DNA of 64,000 bases from Chitinophagaceae bacterium (GCA_004028765.1 SAIX01000038.1:6507-70506), one strand, 5' to 3'. Shown: positions 5,086 through 12,119, counted from the stretch's first letter. Numbers and translations are program-made. The notes: generated by a model not told the origin, from the sequence alone.

Positions 5086-5110
5086 AATCCCCTAGCAGGG
5101 CAATTCCGTA
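5086..5110 (+). promoter_or_regulatory. Putative ECF-sigma promoter AATCC-N16-CGTA for the TPR lipoprotein
   Basis: AATCC 5086-5090, 16-nt spacer, CGTA 5107-5110, 18 nt before the ATG. Same architecture at 10886-10910 and 10960-10984. Confidence 0.7.
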
Positions 5111-5128
5111 TATAGGCAAATGCATTGC

Positions 5129-6415
5129 ATGAAAACCCTGGTACCCCTTTTCGCTTTTCTTGTTTCTGTTTCTTCCTGCCGGCCACCGGCTCCGCTGGCC
5201 GACCCTGTTTTTACAGACAGCCTGTTATCCATTCGCGGACTTGTTCCGCAGGTAAAAAGCCTCGGAAAAGACAGCCTCTTCTGGACCGAACGCCTCGGGA
5301 AGAGCGGGGATGCTTTCACGGCTTCATCCCGGCTTGCAGGCCTGTTTGTACAAAAATTCCAGCTCCAAGGGGATATGCGGGATCTTTTGAAAGCCGATTC
5401 CATTTACAGTAAACTTATCACAGATTACAAAGGAATGGATGCAGGGATACTCAGGTCGATGGCATCTTTACAGATCACAAGGCACCGTTTCAGGCAGGCC
5501 GATTCACTGGTATTAAAATCGCTGGCTTTGGGCCAGGAAAAATATACCGGAACGCTGCTGGCATTTGATACCAAATTTGAACTGGGTGAATATATTCTTG
5601 CGGAACACTTGTTAAAAGAATGTGCCGCCACCAACGAGTATGGTTATTTTTTCCGGATGGGAAAATGGATGCATTATAAGGGCTTGTCTGACAGTGCAGC
5701 CTGGTACCTGCAAAAAGCTGCCGATTGGGCCGGTACCAGCCCCTCCCTAAAACAGGCTGCTTTTTCCAACCTGGCCGATCTGTACCTGCACGATGGCAAA
5801 ATGAAAGAAGCTGCCATATTGTATAAAAGGGTACTCTCGCAAAACCCGGTGGATTTCCACAGCCTGAGAGGCTGGGGAAGGATCGCTTTGCTGCATGACC
5901 AAAACCCGGGCCTGGCTCAAAAAATATTTGACCATACGGCTACGATCAATGGATTGCCCGATCCATGGTACGACAAAATATGGGTGGCCGAAGAAAAAAG
6001 CGATACGGTTCTCGCCCGCAAAACGGCAGAAATTTTTGTGCAGAAAGCCAGCGACCCTGTATATGGCGCCATGTACCATAAATATCTATTTGAGCTGTAT
6101 ACAGGTGTCCTGAACCGGCCGGAGCCTGCACTTTCCATCGCTTTATCAGAAGTAAAAGAACGGCCAACACCGCAAACCTATGCATGGCTTGTTTGGGCTT
6201 TGCATAAAAATGGGAAAGAAGCGGCAGCAAAGGAATTGTACGATGAAAAAGTATCCGGGAAACCCCTGGAAGCACTTGAATTATTCTGGATGGGCAAGTG
6301 GATGAAAGAAAATGGCCAGGGATACAACGCATCTGCTTTTTTTAAAGCAGCAGAGCGAAACCTGTATGATCTCTCTCCATGGAAACAACAGGAATTAAAA
6401 TCATTTCTGTTGTAA
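5129..6415 (+). CDS. TPR-repeat lipoprotein
   Basis: MKTLVPLFAFLVSVSS-C lipobox; helical repeats with TPR-like A/G/Y spacing (AAFSNLADLYLHDGKMKEAAILYKRVL). Start moved to 5129. Confidence 0.8.
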   Translation: MKTLVPLFAFLVSVSSCRPPAPLADPVFTDSLLSIRGLVPQVKSLGKDSLFWTERLGKSGDAFTASSRLAGLFVQKFQLQGDMRDLLKADSIYSKLITDYKGMDAGILRSMASLQITRHRFRQADSLVLKSLALGQEKYTGTLLAFDTKFELGEYILAEHLLKECAATNEYGYFFRMGKWMHYKGLSDSAAWYLQKAADWAGTSPSLKQAAFSNLADLYLHDGKMKEAAILYKRVLSQNPVDFHSLRGWGRIALLHDQNPGLAQKIFDHTATINGLPDPWYDKIWVAEEKSDTVLARKTAEIFVQKASDPVYGAMYHKYLFELYTGVLNRPEPALSIALSEVKERPTPQTYAWLVWALHKNGKEAAAKELYDEKVSGKPLEALELFWMGKWMKENGQGYNASAFFKAAERNLYDLSPWKQQELKSFLL

Positions 6416-6592: not shown

Positions 6593-7276
6593 TTACACAA
6601 AAAATATCCTTTGTATTGTCCAGATGGCGGCAACCACGGCAATCAGAAAGGAGAGGGGTACCACAATTCTTTCCCGGTACCATTTTTTATGGGCAAACCA
6701 TTTGGCGAGCAAAAAGTAAGCGGCGAGAATGATGGTGAGTTGCCCCAGTTCAACGCCGATATTGAACATGATCAGCGAGAGGAAATATGCATTTTTTGGC
6801 AACCCCATATTGGCCAGTGCACCCGCAAAGCCCAAACCATGAATAAGACCGAACGCGAATACGATACCAAGCCTGGAGGTCTTAAGTCGGGGGGAATAGA
6901 TATTTTCTATCGCCACATATAATATTGATACCGCGATCAGTGGTTCAATGATCCGTGATGGCGGATTGATCACCTGGTAGGCAGCCAGGCAAAGTGTAAC
7001 GGAATGTGCAAGGGTAAAGGCGGTGGATTGTAAAACGATCGGCTTTAGTTTCGGGCTCAGTAAAAACAAACTCATTACAAAAAAAATATGGTCCAGGCCC
7101 AGCGGAAGAATGTGTTGAAAACCCAATACAAGGTACAGGGTTGCCGCATCGGTTTTACTGAGTTTATCCAGTTCCTGTACCGCTACATGTGCAGAAGCGG
7201 GAATTGCAACACTGCAAAATAAAAACAGCATCCCTGTTGCGGTGCGCCAGGATGCAGGTGAAAATCTTTTTTGCAT
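6593..7276 (-). CDS. HupE/UreJ-family membrane protein (candidate Ni/Co permease)
   Basis: Signal peptide ending PASA then His. Motifs GFQHILPLGLDH, FTLAHSVTL, FGLIHGLGFA, FNIGVELGQ. Start moved to 7276. Confidence 0.85.
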   Translation of the reverse strand: MQKRFSPASWRTATGMLFLFCSVAIPASAHVAVQELDKLSKTDAATLYLVLGFQHILPLGLDHIFFVMSLFLLSPKLKPIVLQSTAFTLAHSVTLCLAAYQVINPPSRIIEPLIAVSILYVAIENIYSPRLKTSRLGIVFAFGLIHGLGFAGALANMGLPKNAYFLSLIMFNIGVELGQLTIILAAYFLLAKWFAHKKWYRERIVVPLSFLIAVVAAIWTIQRIFFV

Positions 7277-7292
7277 TGCTATGTTGATGTTG

Positions 7293-9545
7293 CTAGAAAA
7301 ATACAGCGAATTTAAGTTTGACAAAGAAAGGCGTACCCGGTGTAAAATTCAATTCGGTTACCGGTGCGGCTTCGTTTTGTAAACGGGAAGTGGTGGCAAA
7401 TTGTGCCTCATTCCATTTTACATTAAAAAGATTTTCTATCGCCATCCCCAATTCATACCCCGGCATTGTATAATGAACAGCGGCATCGGTTACAAAGTAA
7501 CCTTTCGCAATGATGCTGTTGTCTTCATTCGCAGGCCGGTTTTGTATAAACCGATATGTAAGGCTCCCGTTGAGCCCGTATTTCCTTTTATAAAAAATTC
7601 CGCCCGTACTGCTGAAAGTGGGTGCAAGCGGTACAAAACTTTGTTCTTTAGCAGCATCCCGGTAACGGGGATCTGTAAAATTCAGATTGGTATTTACAAA
7701 CCAGTGACCGTTCAACTGGTATCGTGCAATGATATCGATCCCTTTGCGTACAGAACGTCCGCTGGGTTCTATCTTTCCTTCATCGCCCACATATACAAAT
7801 TCCTGGTCGAGTTGAAGATACCAGGCTGCCATAGTAAGGAATAACCTTGCTGTGGGTTTTAGTGTGATACCGATTTCCCCGCTATACGCGGCAGGCAGTA
7901 TCTCACGGCCTTCATTGGCAACCACAACGCGCGTATCATTGGAATGGAACCCCTTTCCGGCTTTGGCATACAACTGAGCATTTTTCGTAAGGGTGTATTG
8001 AAGATTGAATTTGGGGCTGAGCACCGATTTGTTTTGCGCAGGATCGGAAATTGCGGAAAGTTTATTGAAATATGCAAACCGCAGATGATCTAAACGCAAA
8101 CCTGCATCGATGAGCCAGCGTCCCGTTTTTATTTCTTTTTCAACAAAGCCAAAGGCATTGTATTCATTAATGTCGCCTAGAGCAACATGGTTCAGGAATT
8201 GCCTCTTTACCACATGATCCAGCCTGCTGTCGCGGATATCATCATAACGGATGCCGGTGCCATAATGGGTTGTAACCGTATAATCCCGTTTCACTTTTTC
8301 CGTGATCAGTGTTGAACTGAAGCCATACAGGTTCCTTTTTTCCGCCTGGTTGATCTCATCTCCATTCACAGGATCGTCCAGGAAAAATGTAAAATCAGAG
8401 TACAATGAAAACCGGTAGCGACTGGCATAAACCCGGTTTTCCCAGCGGGTATTGTTATTGAAGCGGTGTGTAAGCTGAAGATTAAGATTATAGCGCGCTG
8501 TGTTGCCGCCTTCTGAAGGATCAATCGCCCCAAAGCGGCTGATCATCCCATTTTCAACAGCGCGTTCCGGTACCTGGCCGGAAGCATCCCAACTGCTTTT
8601 AAATGCAGAAACGGATGCAGTAAATTGTGTACGGTCTGAAAAAGAAACATGGTATTTCCCAAACAGGTTCAAACGGCCAAAATGTTGTGCATGTTCGGTT
8701 GGACCGTTAGTAGCATAATATTCTCCGGCAAAATAAGCGCCTTGCTTTTCCTTGTTTTTTTTCAGCAGATCGAACATGCCTAAAAAACGGTAAGTGTCAA
8801 AACTTCCATATTCAAGCTGAACTCTGCTACCAGGTATATTCTGGTAAGTTGCAAATGATACATAGCCGGCTGTATTCAGGTTACCCTGGCGGGTATAATA
8901 CGGACCTGCACCAAAATCGATATTGTGAATGGTTTCCGGGATGATAAAATGGGCATCTGCATATCCCTGGCCATGCGCATGCGAAACCATGTTCACAGGC
9001 ATGCCATCAACGGATACCTGTATATCCGTTCCATGGTCACAATCAAAGCCGCGGAGAAAAATCTGTTCCGCCTTGCCGCCGCCCGCATGTTGCGCAACAA
9101 ATAAGCCCGGAACAACACGCATCAGTTCCTGTGTATTGCGAACGGGTTTGAGGTCGAGGTCAATTTTTGCGAGCGTATTGAATTTTCCATTGCTGCTGTT
9201 GCTCTGTGTAACCACCACTTCTTCGAGGTTTACAATATCCGGTTGAAGTGCGATAGGTGTTTGCAGGATACTGTCTGATGATATTTTTTTTGCCCTGTAC
9301 CCAACGGCACTGATGAGCAGCCATTCGTTTTTTTCAGGCTTCGGGATCCGGAAACGTCCGTCTGCATCACTGATCACCAAAATCCCTTTTGTATTGGCCG
9401 GATGAATGGAAACCGATTCGAGTGCCTGTTTGCTTACAGCATCAATCACCCTTCCTTCCAGTATGGTTTGTGCACCTGTTTTATTGCAAATGCTTAACAA
9501 TACAAAGAAGCACAGGGTGGCCGCCGTAATCGCTTTTCGCTTCAT
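7293..9545 (-). CDS. TonB-dependent receptor with N-terminal carboxypeptidase-regulatory-like domain and His-rich plug
   Basis: Signal peptide; LEGRVIDAVSKQALESV N-domain; plug motifs QHAGGGKAEQIFLRGFDCDHGTD and NMVSHAHGQGYAD; IENLFN box; C-terminal Phe. Confidence 0.9.
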   Translation of the reverse strand: MKRKAITAATLCFFVLLSICNKTGAQTILEGRVIDAVSKQALESVSIHPANTKGILVISDADGRFRIPKPEKNEWLLISAVGYRAKKISSDSILQTPIALQPDIVNLEEVVVTQSNSSNGKFNTLAKIDLDLKPVRNTQELMRVVPGLFVAQHAGGGKAEQIFLRGFDCDHGTDIQVSVDGMPVNMVSHAHGQGYADAHFIIPETIHNIDFGAGPYYTRQGNLNTAGYVSFATYQNIPGSRVQLEYGSFDTYRFLGMFDLLKKNKEKQGAYFAGEYYATNGPTEHAQHFGRLNLFGKYHVSFSDRTQFTASVSAFKSSWDASGQVPERAVENGMISRFGAIDPSEGGNTARYNLNLQLTHRFNNNTRWENRVYASRYRFSLYSDFTFFLDDPVNGDEINQAEKRNLYGFSSTLITEKVKRDYTVTTHYGTGIRYDDIRDSRLDHVVKRQFLNHVALGDINEYNAFGFVEKEIKTGRWLIDAGLRLDHLRFAYFNKLSAISDPAQNKSVLSPKFNLQYTLTKNAQLYAKAGKGFHSNDTRVVVANEGREILPAAYSGEIGITLKPTARLFLTMAAWYLQLDQEFVYVGDEGKIEPSGRSVRKGIDIIARYQLNGHWFVNTNLNFTDPRYRDAAKEQSFVPLAPTFSSTGGIFYKRKYGLNGSLTYRFIQNRPANEDNSIIAKGYFVTDAAVHYTMPGYELGMAIENLFNVKWNEAQFATTSRLQNEAAPVTELNFTPGTPFFVKLKFAVFF

Positions 9546-9624: not shown

Positions 9625-10170
9625 TTACCAGGGGGTCGCAAGATAAGGGAACACGCTCAGAAATGCTTTGTCATTCGCACTCACTTTATCGGAAGTAAGC
9701 CCGGGATTGGCAGCACCGTTAGGACCGCCAAAAATGAGCAGTAATTCGGTATCGATCACATCATCTCCCAAAGCCCTTCCGGTAAGCACATTGGTGCCAT
9801 CAAAAAAAGTGGTGGTACCCGTTGTGGAAACTGTAAGTACATCTGTTGCGAGCACACCGGTAAAGGCTGATGCAGAAAGGCCAAGCGCATTGGTGGTGTA
9901 TCCGGGGTTCAGTCCAAGCAGCCTTGCCTGGAATTTGGATTGAAATGCCGCGCCCATTGCGGAAGGCACAGTAGTGTTGAACAGATCTTTGTCGGCACCG
10001 AGGTTAAACACGGTGTTAATAGCAGGTCGGGCCATCTGGTCTTCCGTTTGGTAAGTTACATTGGCAAATACATCTACTGTGGTTGCAGTATCTTTTTTAC
10101 AGGAGGAGAACAGCATCAGTGCTGAAATTAATCCAAAACCTGCTGTGCGTATATTCTTGGTTGTTTTCAT
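9625..10170 (-). CDS. DUF4331-type lipoprotein (resembles the C-terminal half of long DUF4331 proteins)
   Basis: Lipobox LFSS-C; motifs EDQMARPAINTVF and TGRALGDDVIDTELLLIFG; ends FPYLATPW. Start moved to 10170. Confidence 0.75.
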   Translation of the reverse strand: MKTTKNIRTAGFGLISALMLFSSCKKDTATTVDVFANVTYQTEDQMARPAINTVFNLGADKDLFNTTVPSAMGAAFQSKFQARLLGLNPGYTTNALGLSASAFTGVLATDVLTVSTTGTTTFFDGTNVLTGRALGDDVIDTELLLIFGGPNGAANPGLTSDKVSANDKAFLSVFPYLATPW

Positions 10171-10192
10171 CTTACTTGATTTTGAGTGGTTA

Positions 10193-10846
10193 TTAAATTT
10201 TTCTTTTTGCTTCAGCCCAAACATTCACTTTGCCATTGGTGGCACCCAGTAATGATTTGGGGAATTCCAGTACGATGCTCATTACATTGGTTCCTTTGAA
10301 GCTGTCGTTTCCGGGATTATTGAAAGAAGTTGCAGTTCCGGCAAGGATTTTTTTGAACTGGTCGAGGTCAAAAAAGAAAGGATCATCTCTCGGGCCGGCA
10401 AATGCCATAAAATTATTCTGTGAGGCGATGATGGCATTCTGTCCGTACGGAGTTACCCCCACGCTGATGGTTTGTGCACCTTCCACCACACTCTTACTGC
10501 CTGTCATTGAAGGCTTAATGGGGCCATAAACATACATGGTATTATTGTTGAACACACACTGTACCACCAGGTCTTCCACATTGTCACCATTGTTATCGAT
10601 GTTGAGTTCGATCATGGTGTTGTTGTCGAATGCGGCAGAAGCCGTTGCAGATGGTGTGAGCAGGCCCTGTGTGTTGATAACAAAAGCCATGTTGTTTGTG
10701 TTTTGTCCCTGGAAAGCATATACATCCGTGATATCGGTTGTTTTACCGGTAACAGCGGGTGTGTCGGCGTGGTCGGCTGCCATTACGATGCCTGCGGTGA
10801 TAAGACAGGCGCCCAGCAGGGCGAACAGGATTTTTTTTGTTTTCAT
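10193..10846 (-). CDS. DUF4331-family secreted protein (resembles the N-terminal half of long DUF4331 proteins)
   Basis: Sec signal peptide then ADHADTP; DITDVYAF; FAGPRDDPFFFDL; FKGTNVMSIVLE. Confidence 0.8.
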   Translation of the reverse strand: MKTKKILFALLGACLITAGIVMAADHADTPAVTGKTTDITDVYAFQGQNTNNMAFVINTQGLLTPSATASAAFDNNTMIELNIDNNGDNVEDLVVQCVFNNNTMYVYGPIKPSMTGSKSVVEGAQTISVGVTPYGQNAIIASQNNFMAFAGPRDDPFFFDLDQFKKILAGTATSFNNPGNDSFKGTNVMSIVLEFPKSLLGATNGKVNVWAEAKRKI

Positions 10847-10885
10847 ACTGTTGATTTTAATTTTTTTAAGATATGTGCTGAGAAA

Positions 10886-10910
10886 TACGAAGCGTTTTTC
10901 CCGCCGGATT
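10886..10910 (-). promoter_or_regulatory. Putative ECF-sigma promoter AATCC-N16-CGTA for the DUF4331-TBDR-HupE operon
   Basis: Minus strand: AATCC (10910-10906), 16-nt spacer, CGTA (10889-10886), 39 nt before the ATG. Confidence 0.7.
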
Positions 10911-10959
10911 TGATTTTCTGCGAATTATTTTTTTTTTCAAAAAAAAGTGGCTGCACATA

Positions 10960-10984
10960 AATCCGAATGAAAAAGCCTGCCGTA
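10960..10984 (+). promoter_or_regulatory. Putative ECF-sigma promoter AATCC-N16-CGTA, divergent, driving a small RNA candidate
   Basis: AATCC 10960-10964, spacer GAATGAAAAAGCCTGC, CGTA 10981-10984. Confidence 0.65.
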
Positions 10985-10989
10985 TATGC

Positions 10990-11130
10990 GTCGTTGAAAA
11001 GGAAACCTGCTTACCCGCTTTTACGGAATGTGCAGGATGGTGGTTCATGCAAATGCATTGTAAACCAATCTGCCTTTTCGTAAGGTTGTATCAAGGTTGA
11101 AACCCGTCCGTTCCCGGACGGGTATTTTCA
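10990..11130 (+). ncRNA. Candidate structured small RNA (or 17-aa small ORF at 11047-11100)
   Basis: Bounded by the ECF-like promoter and a 9-bp terminator stem, with internal hairpins at 11006-11036 and 11041-11067. No long ORF. Ends are approximate. Confidence 0.5.
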
Positions 11131-11134
11131 TTTT
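11102..11134 (+). terminator. Intrinsic terminator of the sRNA candidate
   Basis: ACCCGTCCG-TTCC-CGGACGGGT followed by ATTTTCATTTT. Confidence 0.7.
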
Positions 11135-11162
11135 GCTCCCGCGGCTGAAAACAATATCTTTG
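11132..11162 (+). promoter_or_regulatory. Bacteroidota sigma-A promoter of the nusB operon
   Basis: TTTG (11132-11135), 19 nt, TATCTTTG (11155-11162): canonical -33/-7 geometry. Confidence 0.75.
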
Positions 11163-11186
11163 CCGCTTCCAACTAAGTTCTTACCA

Positions 11187-12119
11187 ATGATCAGTAGAAG
11201 AAATATCCGCGTGAAAGTGATGCAGATGCTGTACATGATGGAAGCGGCTGATACCACAACGGTTTTTAAAAACCCGGTTGCCGAATTGCAGAAGCAACTC
11301 GATAAAAGCCGTGAACTCTTTGTTTATTTATTGTATTTCCTGGCAGAAGTGGCCCGTTATGCGGAAACGGATGCACAGCAGCGTGCTTCGCGTAACCTTC
11401 CCACCGAGGCAGATCTGAACGTTAACACCAAGATCGCCGGGAACCAGTTTTTGTGGATGATCCTCGAAAATGAAGGCTTCCGTAAAGCAGTGGAAAAAGA
11501 CCTGCCGCAGAAACAGCTTGACAAGGACCTGGTAAAACAGGTTTATAACGAACTGGCAGGGCATCCCAAATACCAGGAATACATTGCCGTACAGGGTAGG
11601 GAAAAGGCAAAGGAAAAAGAGATCATGAAACTGATCTTTACGCAACTGATGCTGCCCAATGAATCATTTATCGCACATCTTGAAGAACTCTACACCAACT
11701 GGGATGATGATGCGGATATGATGGATCAGCTGATGATGAACTATTTTCAGAAACCCGGCGGTTATAACCTGCTGGAAATGCTGAGCCCGGAAAAATGGGA
11801 ATTCGCAAGGTCACTGCTTATCACTACGCTCGAGAAAAAGGAATACTGCACTGAACTGATCAAACCCAAATTAAAGAACTGGGATTCTGAACGGATCGCG
11901 CAGCTTGACATGGTACTGATGCGGATGGGGGTTTGTGAACTGCTGTATTTTGAAACCATTCCCACAAAGGTTACGATCAACGAATACATCGACCTGGCCA
12001 AAGAATACAGCACGCCGCAAAGCGGCCAGTTTGTAAATGGTATCCTGGATAATATCCATAAAGAAATGATGGAAGCCGGTAAAATCCATAAAGTGAACTT
12101 TAAGAATAAACAGGCATGA
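11187..12119 (+). CDS. nusB: Transcription antitermination factor NusB (long Bacteroidota type)
   Basis: MISRRNIRVKVMQ; NWDSERIAQLD, INEYIDLAKEYS, FVNGILD. Start moved to 11187. Confidence 0.95.
   Translation: MISRRNIRVKVMQMLYMMEAADTTTVFKNPVAELQKQLDKSRELFVYLLYFLAEVARYAETDAQQRASRNLPTEADLNVNTKIAGNQFLWMILENEGFRKAVEKDLPQKQLDKDLVKQVYNELAGHPKYQEYIAVQGREKAKEKEIMKLIFTQLMLPNESFIAHLEELYTNWDDDADMMDQLMMNYFQKPGGYNLLEMLSPEKWEFARSLLITTLEKKEYCTELIKPKLKNWDSERIAQLDMVLMRMGVCELLYFETIPTKVTINEYIDLAKEYSTPQSGQFVNGILDNIHKEMMEAGKIHKVNFKNKQA

Follow-up and report, generated by a model that had tools for sequence, protein, structure and literature searches.

A candidate small RNA of Sediminibacterium with an ECF-type promoter and predicted complementarity to the leader of an ECF sigma factor mRNA

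The 340-bp divergent spacer between a DUF4331 operon and nusB in a 3.7-Mb Sediminibacterium genome (Chitinophagaceae, Bacteroidota) holds a candidate sRNA (10990–11134, plus strand) that, judging from sequence comparison, is probably a trans-acting member of the regulon of one ECF sigma factor and would feed back on the mRNA of that same sigma factor. In silico, its promoter is of the ECF type, its terminator covaries, its core is invariant, the complementarity between this core and the sigma mRNA leader co-varies from genome to genome, and the RNA and the sigma gene co-occur. Coordinates refer to the window, that is, the whole stretch of 64,000 nt that was analyzed (contig C38:6507–70506), whose relevant features are as follows.

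6593–7324, minus strand: HupE/UreJ gene (Pfam), left of the spacer.
7293–9545, minus strand: TonB-dependent receptor gene (Pfam), left of the spacer.
9625–10224 and 10193–10846, minus strand: two DUF4331 ORFs (Pfam), left of the spacer.
10886–10910, minus strand: ECF-type promoter (AATCC-N16-CGTA, exact motif match) of the DUF4331/TonB-receptor/HupE operon, divergent from the sRNA promoter.
10928–10946, no strand: T10-C-A8 tract between the two divergent −35 elements, read from the sequence.
10960–10984, plus strand: predicted ECF-type sRNA promoter by motif, with −35 AATCC (10960–10964), a 16-nt spacer and −10 CGTA (10981–10984).
10990–11134, plus strand: predicted sRNA transcript of ~140 nt, deduced from promoter and terminator (fold z = −3.6).
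10991–11077, plus strand: variable 5′ domain with both stem-loops, unalignable in relatives; it includes AACCTGCTT (11004–11012), able to mask the seed.
11047–11100, plus strand: 17-aa ORF MQMHCKPICLFVRLYQG, an ATG-to-TGA frame ending just before the terminator; rejected as a gene.
11078–11101, plus strand: seed region, (nearly) invariant in 26 genomes; its core AAGGTTGTATCAAGGTTGA (11082–11100) contains two AAGGTTG heptamers complementary to the sigma mRNA 5′UTR.
11102–11134, plus strand: intrinsic terminator (terminator scan, covariation) with a 9-bp stem (11102–11110 with 11115–11123), a TTCC loop and a T-rich tail overlapping the nusB −33 box.
11132–11162, plus strand: nusB housekeeping promoter of the Bacteroidota type, conserved in relatives, with TTTG (11132–11135), a 19-nt spacer and TATCTTTG (11155–11162).
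11187–12119, plus strand: nusB, 310 aa (Pfam NusB, E = 2e-27), with a start region kept in relatives.
After nusB, plus strand: DUF1573, yajC and coaE, the right-hand neighbors.

The start of the sRNA was placed ~6–8 nt past the −10 element and its end at the T-run of the terminator, the stem arms of which read ACCCGTCCG-ttcc-CGGACGGGT (11102–11123). The two divergent promoters conform to AAATCCG-N15-CGTAT at 10885–10911 (minus strand) and 10959–10985 (plus strand), with their AATCC elements 49 bp apart and the T10-C-A8 tract at 10928–10946, a putative shared UP or bending element, between them, as the initial annotation had described. Its other structural observations are likewise borne out by the sequence: the paired segments CCTGC/GCAGG (11006–11036) around CCG-CTTTTA-CGG, the stem-loop TGGTT..ATGC-AAAT-GCAT..AACCA (11041–11067), and the 9-bp GC-rich stem with a T-rich tail to 11134, which a terminator scan also detected. 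The −7 box of the nusB promoter is carried by rRNA promoters of the same genome as well. Two side observations concern the neighboring genes. The DUF4331 ORFs (9625–10846, minus strand) overlap by 32 nt, and the gene may be truly split or the division may stem from a frameshift or an error of assembly; on the Pfam DUF4331 profile, 10193–10846 covers positions 134–237 and 9625–10224 covers positions 253–421. The nusB 5′UTR contains a decamer, AAGTTCTTAC (11174–11183), that is kept across relatives and is identical in the 16S rRNA leader (contig C50 of this genome), where it sits ~25 nt past a TAtcTTTG promoter box; nusB and rrn transcripts may have this element in common.

The 151-nt stretch that we folded reaches −51.4 kcal/mol, compared with −36.7 ± 4.1 kcal/mol for shuffled sequences (z = −3.6; 0 of 200 shuffles as good). 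The region has no Rfam match at gathering thresholds, and at this score it belongs neither to MicA, RybB or MicL nor to any other curated family, in agreement with the original failure to recognize it as a known RNA; at permissive thresholds, the best sub-threshold models, rnk_pseudo (18 bits) and anti-hemB (17 bits), both align the terminator alone. Comparison of the whole spacer with 60 relatives by blastn yields alignments limited to 11071–11190 and reveals a sharp conservation boundary: nothing is alignable upstream of AGGTTGTATCAAGG, and from this point onward the core AAGGTTGTATCAAGGTTGA, the hairpin, the T-run, the housekeeping promoter TTTG-N19-TAnnTTTG and the nusB 5′UTR are kept. The conserved module corresponds to the last ~55 nt of the predicted RNA and is composed of the core, the 9-bp hairpin and the T-run. 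The proposal of a structured RNA of ~140 nt is in line with the comparison with shuffled sequences, but neither internal stem-loop has a blastn match in any relative, and the conservation found on searching relatives extends to the core and hairpin but not to the 5′ body. The upstream region, including the T10-C-A8 tract, shows no conservation in the relatives inspected, and the back-to-back arrangement with the DUF4331 operon holds for this genome, but the relatives inspected have other upstream neighbors.

Of 151 species genomes of Sediminibacterium searched with a covariance model of the core and hairpin, 26 contain the element, each in one copy; among 200 genomes from other Chitinophagaceae (about 150 genera), the model identifies no homolog, its single match being the ffh terminator. 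A pattern scan of GTDB species genomes returned 32 contigs, all of them from Sediminibacterium/Chitinophagaceae or from evidently mislabeled bins, and a similar scan of metagenomes returned 13 long genomic contigs and no transcript-like records. The GTDB species-representative MAGs that bear the element under other titles (Caulobacter sp., Brevundimonas vancanneytii, Chitinophaga pinensis and Candidatus Korobacteraceae; loci L074, L090, L097, L098 and L100) are probably mislabeled or contaminated. In every inspected locus that reaches far enough, nusB lies downstream of the element; the upstream neighbor varies by genome, and in six genomes the hairpin and the nusB promoter are separated by 100–200 nt of unrelated repeats. 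Given the variable upstream neighbor and these insertions, we regard the element as its own unit and not as part of the nusB promoter or leader. The inserts between terminator and promoter (L025, L027–L031) are degenerate GAGCTNNGAGC-type repeat arrays.

Because blastn aligns just 11071–11190, the 140-nt structured body is unfit for a covariation test, which is applicable to the conserved part alone; there, the terminator hairpin does covary. Among 32 distinct hairpin sequences, 99.7% of cells are paired and four of the nine pairs are changed on both sides, a covariation score matched by 0 of 500 shuffles. The stem variants include U-G and G-U pairs that are compatible with an RNA of the plus strand alone and form mismatches on the other strand, from which it follows that the hairpin functions as plus-strand RNA. 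Trans-acting sRNAs of ECF regulons are discrete short transcripts with an intrinsic terminator at the end; for the candidate, the terminator hairpin covaries and fits the plus strand, and the transcript is a predicted one.

The promoter points to a particular sigma factor as the probable driver of the candidate. An exact AAWCC-N16-CGTA motif is found on the plus strand 46–201 nt upstream of the core in 19 of the 26 loci, compared with 0.011 copies per 250 nt in the remainder of these loci, and this motif is kept even though the sequence between it and the core is unalignable. An extended consensus, TAAAWCC..CGTAtAT, is common to the sRNA promoters and to the promoter of an ECF sigma gene (C84:14138–14677 of this genome, G000, minus strand), which has a TTG start, encodes a protein of 180 aa matching Sigma70_r2/r4_2, and is followed in its operon by an anti-sigma gene (258 aa, RskA_C domain). 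Each of the 25 orthologous loci has the ECF motif directly ahead of the sigma gene, in one case with the variant −35 AATCT. The promoter that an ECF sigma factor recognizes is typically revealed by such autoregulation, and the sRNA would accordingly belong to this sigma factor; in silico, the sRNA promoter is of a kind recognized by an ECF sigma factor. The start codon of the sigma gene is TTG in 24 of 25 genomes (L036–L060), and the gene directly follows a gcvH-like gene, its promoter beginning within a few bases of the gcvH stop codon. Elsewhere in the genome, the motif also precedes the gene of a 431-aa protein with a weak TPR match (5120–6415) in addition to the C84 sigma gene. This third AATCC-N16-CGTA copy in the window (~5086–5110, plus strand) lies 9 nt before the ATG, and the mRNA would be nearly leaderless; further intergenic copies are present on contigs C44 and C82. 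The S. goheungense clade has no ECF motif within 900 nt upstream, including upstream of the gene of a 155-aa lipoprotein that ends 21–24 nt before the core (L020–L024, L078, L091 and L100). In this clade the RNA would have to be derived from a 3′UTR, or the hairpin may simply terminate the lipoprotein gene. By eye, the lipoprotein resembles a truncated globin, and a remnant AATCC overlaps the stop codon of its gene.

Up to the start codon, the sigma mRNA leader reads ...atatCAACCTTtaCAACCTTcgtTTG (CAACCTT-TA-CAACCTT-CGT-TTG, the TTG being the start), and its two heptamers are perfectly complementary to the pair of AAGGTTG heptamers in the sRNA core. The pattern CAACCTT-N(0–8)-CAACCTT has just two occurrences in the 3.7-Mb genome, one on the strand opposite the sRNA and one in the leader of the sigma mRNA, where it ends 3 nt ahead of the start codon TTG. 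When the invariant 19-nt core is used as the query, the sigma start region ranks 13th among 24,906 candidate start windows. When the full 31-nt seed window is scanned for duplexes across the genome, many sites in coding regions are lower in energy than the sigma leader, which does not come near the top; this longer window is partly non-conserved and dominated by coding-region noise, and the meaningful rank is that of the 19-nt core at start regions alone. Across 24–25 genomes, RNAduplex energies for the sRNA and the leader range from −14 to −28 kcal/mol, with a mean z of −3.6 relative to shuffled seeds and of −3.1 relative to native windows of the same length from the same loci (80 of 4,063 windows as good). 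Cognate pairs reach −494 kcal/mol compared with −442 ± 11 kcal/mol for permuted pairings (0 of 20,000 permutations), a comparison in which independence is overstated as the genomes are related.

Several of the differences between genomes are compensatory and lineage-specific. The sRNA has GGUUA where the mRNA has UAACC in three genomes (G157, G168 and G098), an extra G:C pair is formed in G079 (AAGCAGGGU / ACCCUGCUU), G·U pairs are formed in G143, GCAGAG faces UCUGC in G061, and GGUUGAC faces GUCAAC and GGUUUCAGG faces CCUGAGCC in G170 and G084; in G034, the second site is gone from both the sRNA and the leader. Uncompensated variants also exist (AAGGUGG in G022 and G159), and the duplex of G140 is weak (−13.7 kcal/mol; 30 of 179 native windows as good). 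The spacing of the leader sites is variable (2–20 nt) and G·U pairs are tolerated. The 19-nt core is, in 25 genomes, a conserved seed complementary to the translation-initiation region of its predicted target. Of 26 sRNA-positive genomes, 25 have the sigma ortholog, compared with 5 of the 24 that are sRNA-negative (Fisher p = 3e-8, without phylogenetic correction). Among the latter, two have a sigma homolog beside gcvH with neither the promoter motif nor the CAACC sites, and one genome, 77% complete, keeps both the motif and the sites and has probably lost the contig with the sRNA. The initial annotation had cast the RNA as the repressing arm of its regulon; the spirit of that suggestion is supported, and the predicted target can now be named more specifically as the ECF sigma mRNA.

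The RNA could instead be a genuine ECF-dependent sRNA whose main targets are other mRNAs, for envelope or metal-uptake functions as for MicA and RybB, with the pairing to the sigma mRNA being secondary or even activating if it opened a small hairpin around the UUG start codon. We consider this unlikely, although several observations speak for it: the UAUC between the heptamers is invariant and yet forms an internal loop of the sigma duplex in this genome, strong complementarity also exists to a stretch of contig C66 (13 nt without a mismatch, TCAACCTTGATAC) and to the start region of an ORF (310 aa) on contig C107, and known ECF-dependent sRNAs act mainly on envelope mRNAs (PMC11257525). The double heptamer is, however, unique to the sigma leader, where it co-varies with the sRNA, conservation having been examined for the sigma leader alone; the pairing moreover covers positions −1 to −9 before the start codon, an arrangement that is usually repressive for translation.

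Less likely again is that the conserved block acts as DNA or in cis, as an insulating terminator joined to a protein-binding direct repeat of the nusB promoter region, with the ECF motif giving rise to a mere short by-product transcript or to transcriptional interference. The block is always upstream of nusB, in most genomes touching its −33 box, the arrangement AAGGTTG-N4-AAGGTTG has an 11-bp period typical of response-regulator binding sites, and the hairpin of the S. goheungense clade comes right after a gene of the same orientation. This interpretation has difficulty with the repeats that intervene between the hairpin and the nusB promoter in six genomes and with the U-G and G-U stem variants, which point to plus-strand RNA. 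It also has difficulty with the leader sites, whose variable spacing and tolerance of G·U pairs fit RNA pairing and not a common DNA operator, and with the retention of the ECF promoter although its distance to the block ranges from 46 to 201 nt.

A nusB leader or attenuator, in which the ECF promoter would read nusB through a terminator regulated by Nus factors and boxA or by a riboswitch, is very improbable. A terminator upstream of a gene in a divergent spacer could be read in this way, and Nus-factor genes are autoregulated via boxA leaders in some bacteria; nevertheless, nusB is separated from the terminator by the conserved housekeeping promoter TTTG-N19-TAnnTTTG, the 5′ domain, in which an aptamer would have to reside, is not conserved, and no Rfam riboswitch or leader model matches. 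The riboswitch or attenuator form is rejected on account of this intervening promoter together with the repeat insertions in six genomes, and for the boxA form, the sRNA core has no stretch similar to the boxA-like element of the rRNA leader, GATCTTTGAAAG. That the locus is instead a small protein gene, raised earlier as an alternative on the strength of the 17-aa ATG-to-TGA frame at 11047–11100 that ends just before the terminator in this genome, is hardly credible, as the stop codon is lost in G022 and G159 (GGTGGAG) and in G034, the upstream frame is unalignable, and where the transcript is 61 nt long, its part before the core contains no ATG. With this sole ORF not conserved, the candidate appears to be non-coding. 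The comparison with relatives favors what had been put forward for the locus, an unannotated sRNA with an ECF-type promoter and an intrinsic terminator, separate from the sigma-A promoter of nusB.

The 5′ domain differs in character from the conserved module. The implied transcript length is ~140 nt in the window and 61–216 nt in relatives, and in the MFE structure of the window the 5′ domain pairs partly with the seed. In several species the seed is predicted to be partly masked by the 5′ domain of the RNA itself, with unpaired probabilities of 0.13–0.57. The internal anti-seed of the window is AACCTGCTT (11004–11012), the same as the start-proximal target motif in the sigma leaders of other species, and in G106, G113 and G035 (L009–L011) it is CUCAAUAUGAUAUGAUU; these anti-seed stretches are predicted to pair with the seed (unpaired probability 0.13–0.33). 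We speculate that the 5′ domain is a lineage-specific device that may tune the accessibility of the seed.

For the preferred reading, a trans-acting sRNA that feeds back on the sigma mRNA, we posit the following mechanism. Once released, the sigma factor would transcribe its own operon, the DUF4331/TonB-receptor/HupE operon, the TPR lipoprotein gene and the sRNA from AAWCC-N16-CGTA promoters, and the sRNA would end at its strong intrinsic terminator just ahead of the nusB housekeeping promoter. The single-stranded core (AAGGUUGUAUCAAGGUUGA plus 2–10 nt upstream) would then pair with two sites in the ~45-nt sigma leader, of which the first is near the 5′ end (AUCAACCUU) and the second abuts the UUG start (CAACCUUCG in this genome, AACCUGCUU in most relatives). 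Pairing up to position −1 should block entry of the ribosome at the UUG and so provide direct negative feedback on the sigma/anti-sigma operon. From promoter, terminator and complementarity we infer that the RNA is produced in dependence on this sigma factor, that it pairs with the leader in the cell, and that the outcome is repression rather than activation. The fullest version of this model is a direct circuit of two nodes, in which the sRNA would clamp both leader sites and shut off sigma and anti-sigma synthesis while the 5′ domain serves as an internal anti-seed that tunes the brake; we advance this version tentatively, as a plausible design that we stop just short of favoring.

sRNAs are frequent members of ECF regulons (PMC11257525), and the candidate invites comparison with several of them. 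Like MicA, RybB and MicL of the Enterobacteriaceae, it has an ECF-type sigma promoter, an intrinsic terminator, a short conserved seed and a predicted place in a repressing branch that lowers sigma activity; however, these RNAs share no sequence or structure similarity with the candidate, which has no Rfam match. MicA, RybB and MicL are Hfq-dependent, use 5′ seeds, target outer-membrane protein or Lpp mRNAs, and exert feedback that is indirect only, whereas in the candidate the seed directly precedes the terminator, the host belongs to the Bacteroidota and the predicted target is the sigma mRNA. FoxJ is a further sigmaE-dependent sRNA. SabS of Acinetobacter baumannii is an sRNA in the very small direct regulon of a genus-restricted, metal-stress-related and autoregulating ECF sigma factor (PMC11257525), and the candidate's predicted regulon, like that of SigAb and SabS, has putative metal-uptake genes (TonB receptor, HupE/UreJ and DUF4331). 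In contrast to the candidate, which is in silico only and unrelated in sequence, SabS was detected experimentally and its sigma dependence was established via reporter assays and ChIP-seq; pairing of SabS with the sigAb mRNA is not reported (PMC11257525). StsR of Rhodobacter sphaeroides resembles the candidate in that it pairs near the start codon of an ECF sigma mRNA, rpoE, in a negative feedback, but it is transcribed by RpoHI/RpoHII within a three-node loop of RpoE, RpoHII and StsR, pairs ~10 nt past the start codon, and affects the stability of the mRNA (PMC8307010). Unlike StsR, the candidate would act in a direct loop in which the sigma factor itself drives synthesis of its repressor, and it would bind the leader at two sites.

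Direct autoregulatory feedback of this general form exists in OmrA/OmrB and ompR-envZ of E. coli, in which the sRNAs transcribed by a regulator pair with that regulator's mRNA leader. That regulator is a two-component response regulator and not a sigma factor, and OmrA and OmrB further differ from the candidate in being Hfq-dependent and in having many other targets. On the sequence evidence, the candidate would work like the known sRNAs of ECF regulons while standing outside any curated family, and it would add a direct sigma-sRNA-sigma loop in Bacteroidota. In the literature we found no description of an ECF-dependent sRNA in Bacteroidota, no sRNA that is both transcribed by an ECF sigma factor and paired with the mRNA of that sigma factor, and nothing on DUF4331, on sRNAs of Sediminibacterium, or on an ECF/RskA pair tied to DUF4331/TonB-receptor/HupE genes.

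The finding is narrow in scope, being confined to one clade within a genus of fresh water and soil, and it falls in a phylum whose post-transcriptional control is poorly charted. To our knowledge, Bacteroidota are without Hfq (generally so) and ProQ and largely ignore Shine-Dalgarno pairing. The finding helps to define the regulon of an uncharacterized ECF/RskA pair linked to DUF4331/TonB-receptor/HupE genes. If the loop is real, an RNA brake would be added to the classic sigma/anti-sigma feedback of ECF systems, and the leaders of other ECF operons would be worth searching for complementarity to the sRNAs of their regulons. Its promoter class, invariant seed and co-evolving predicted target make this a compact and directly testable system in Bacteroidota.
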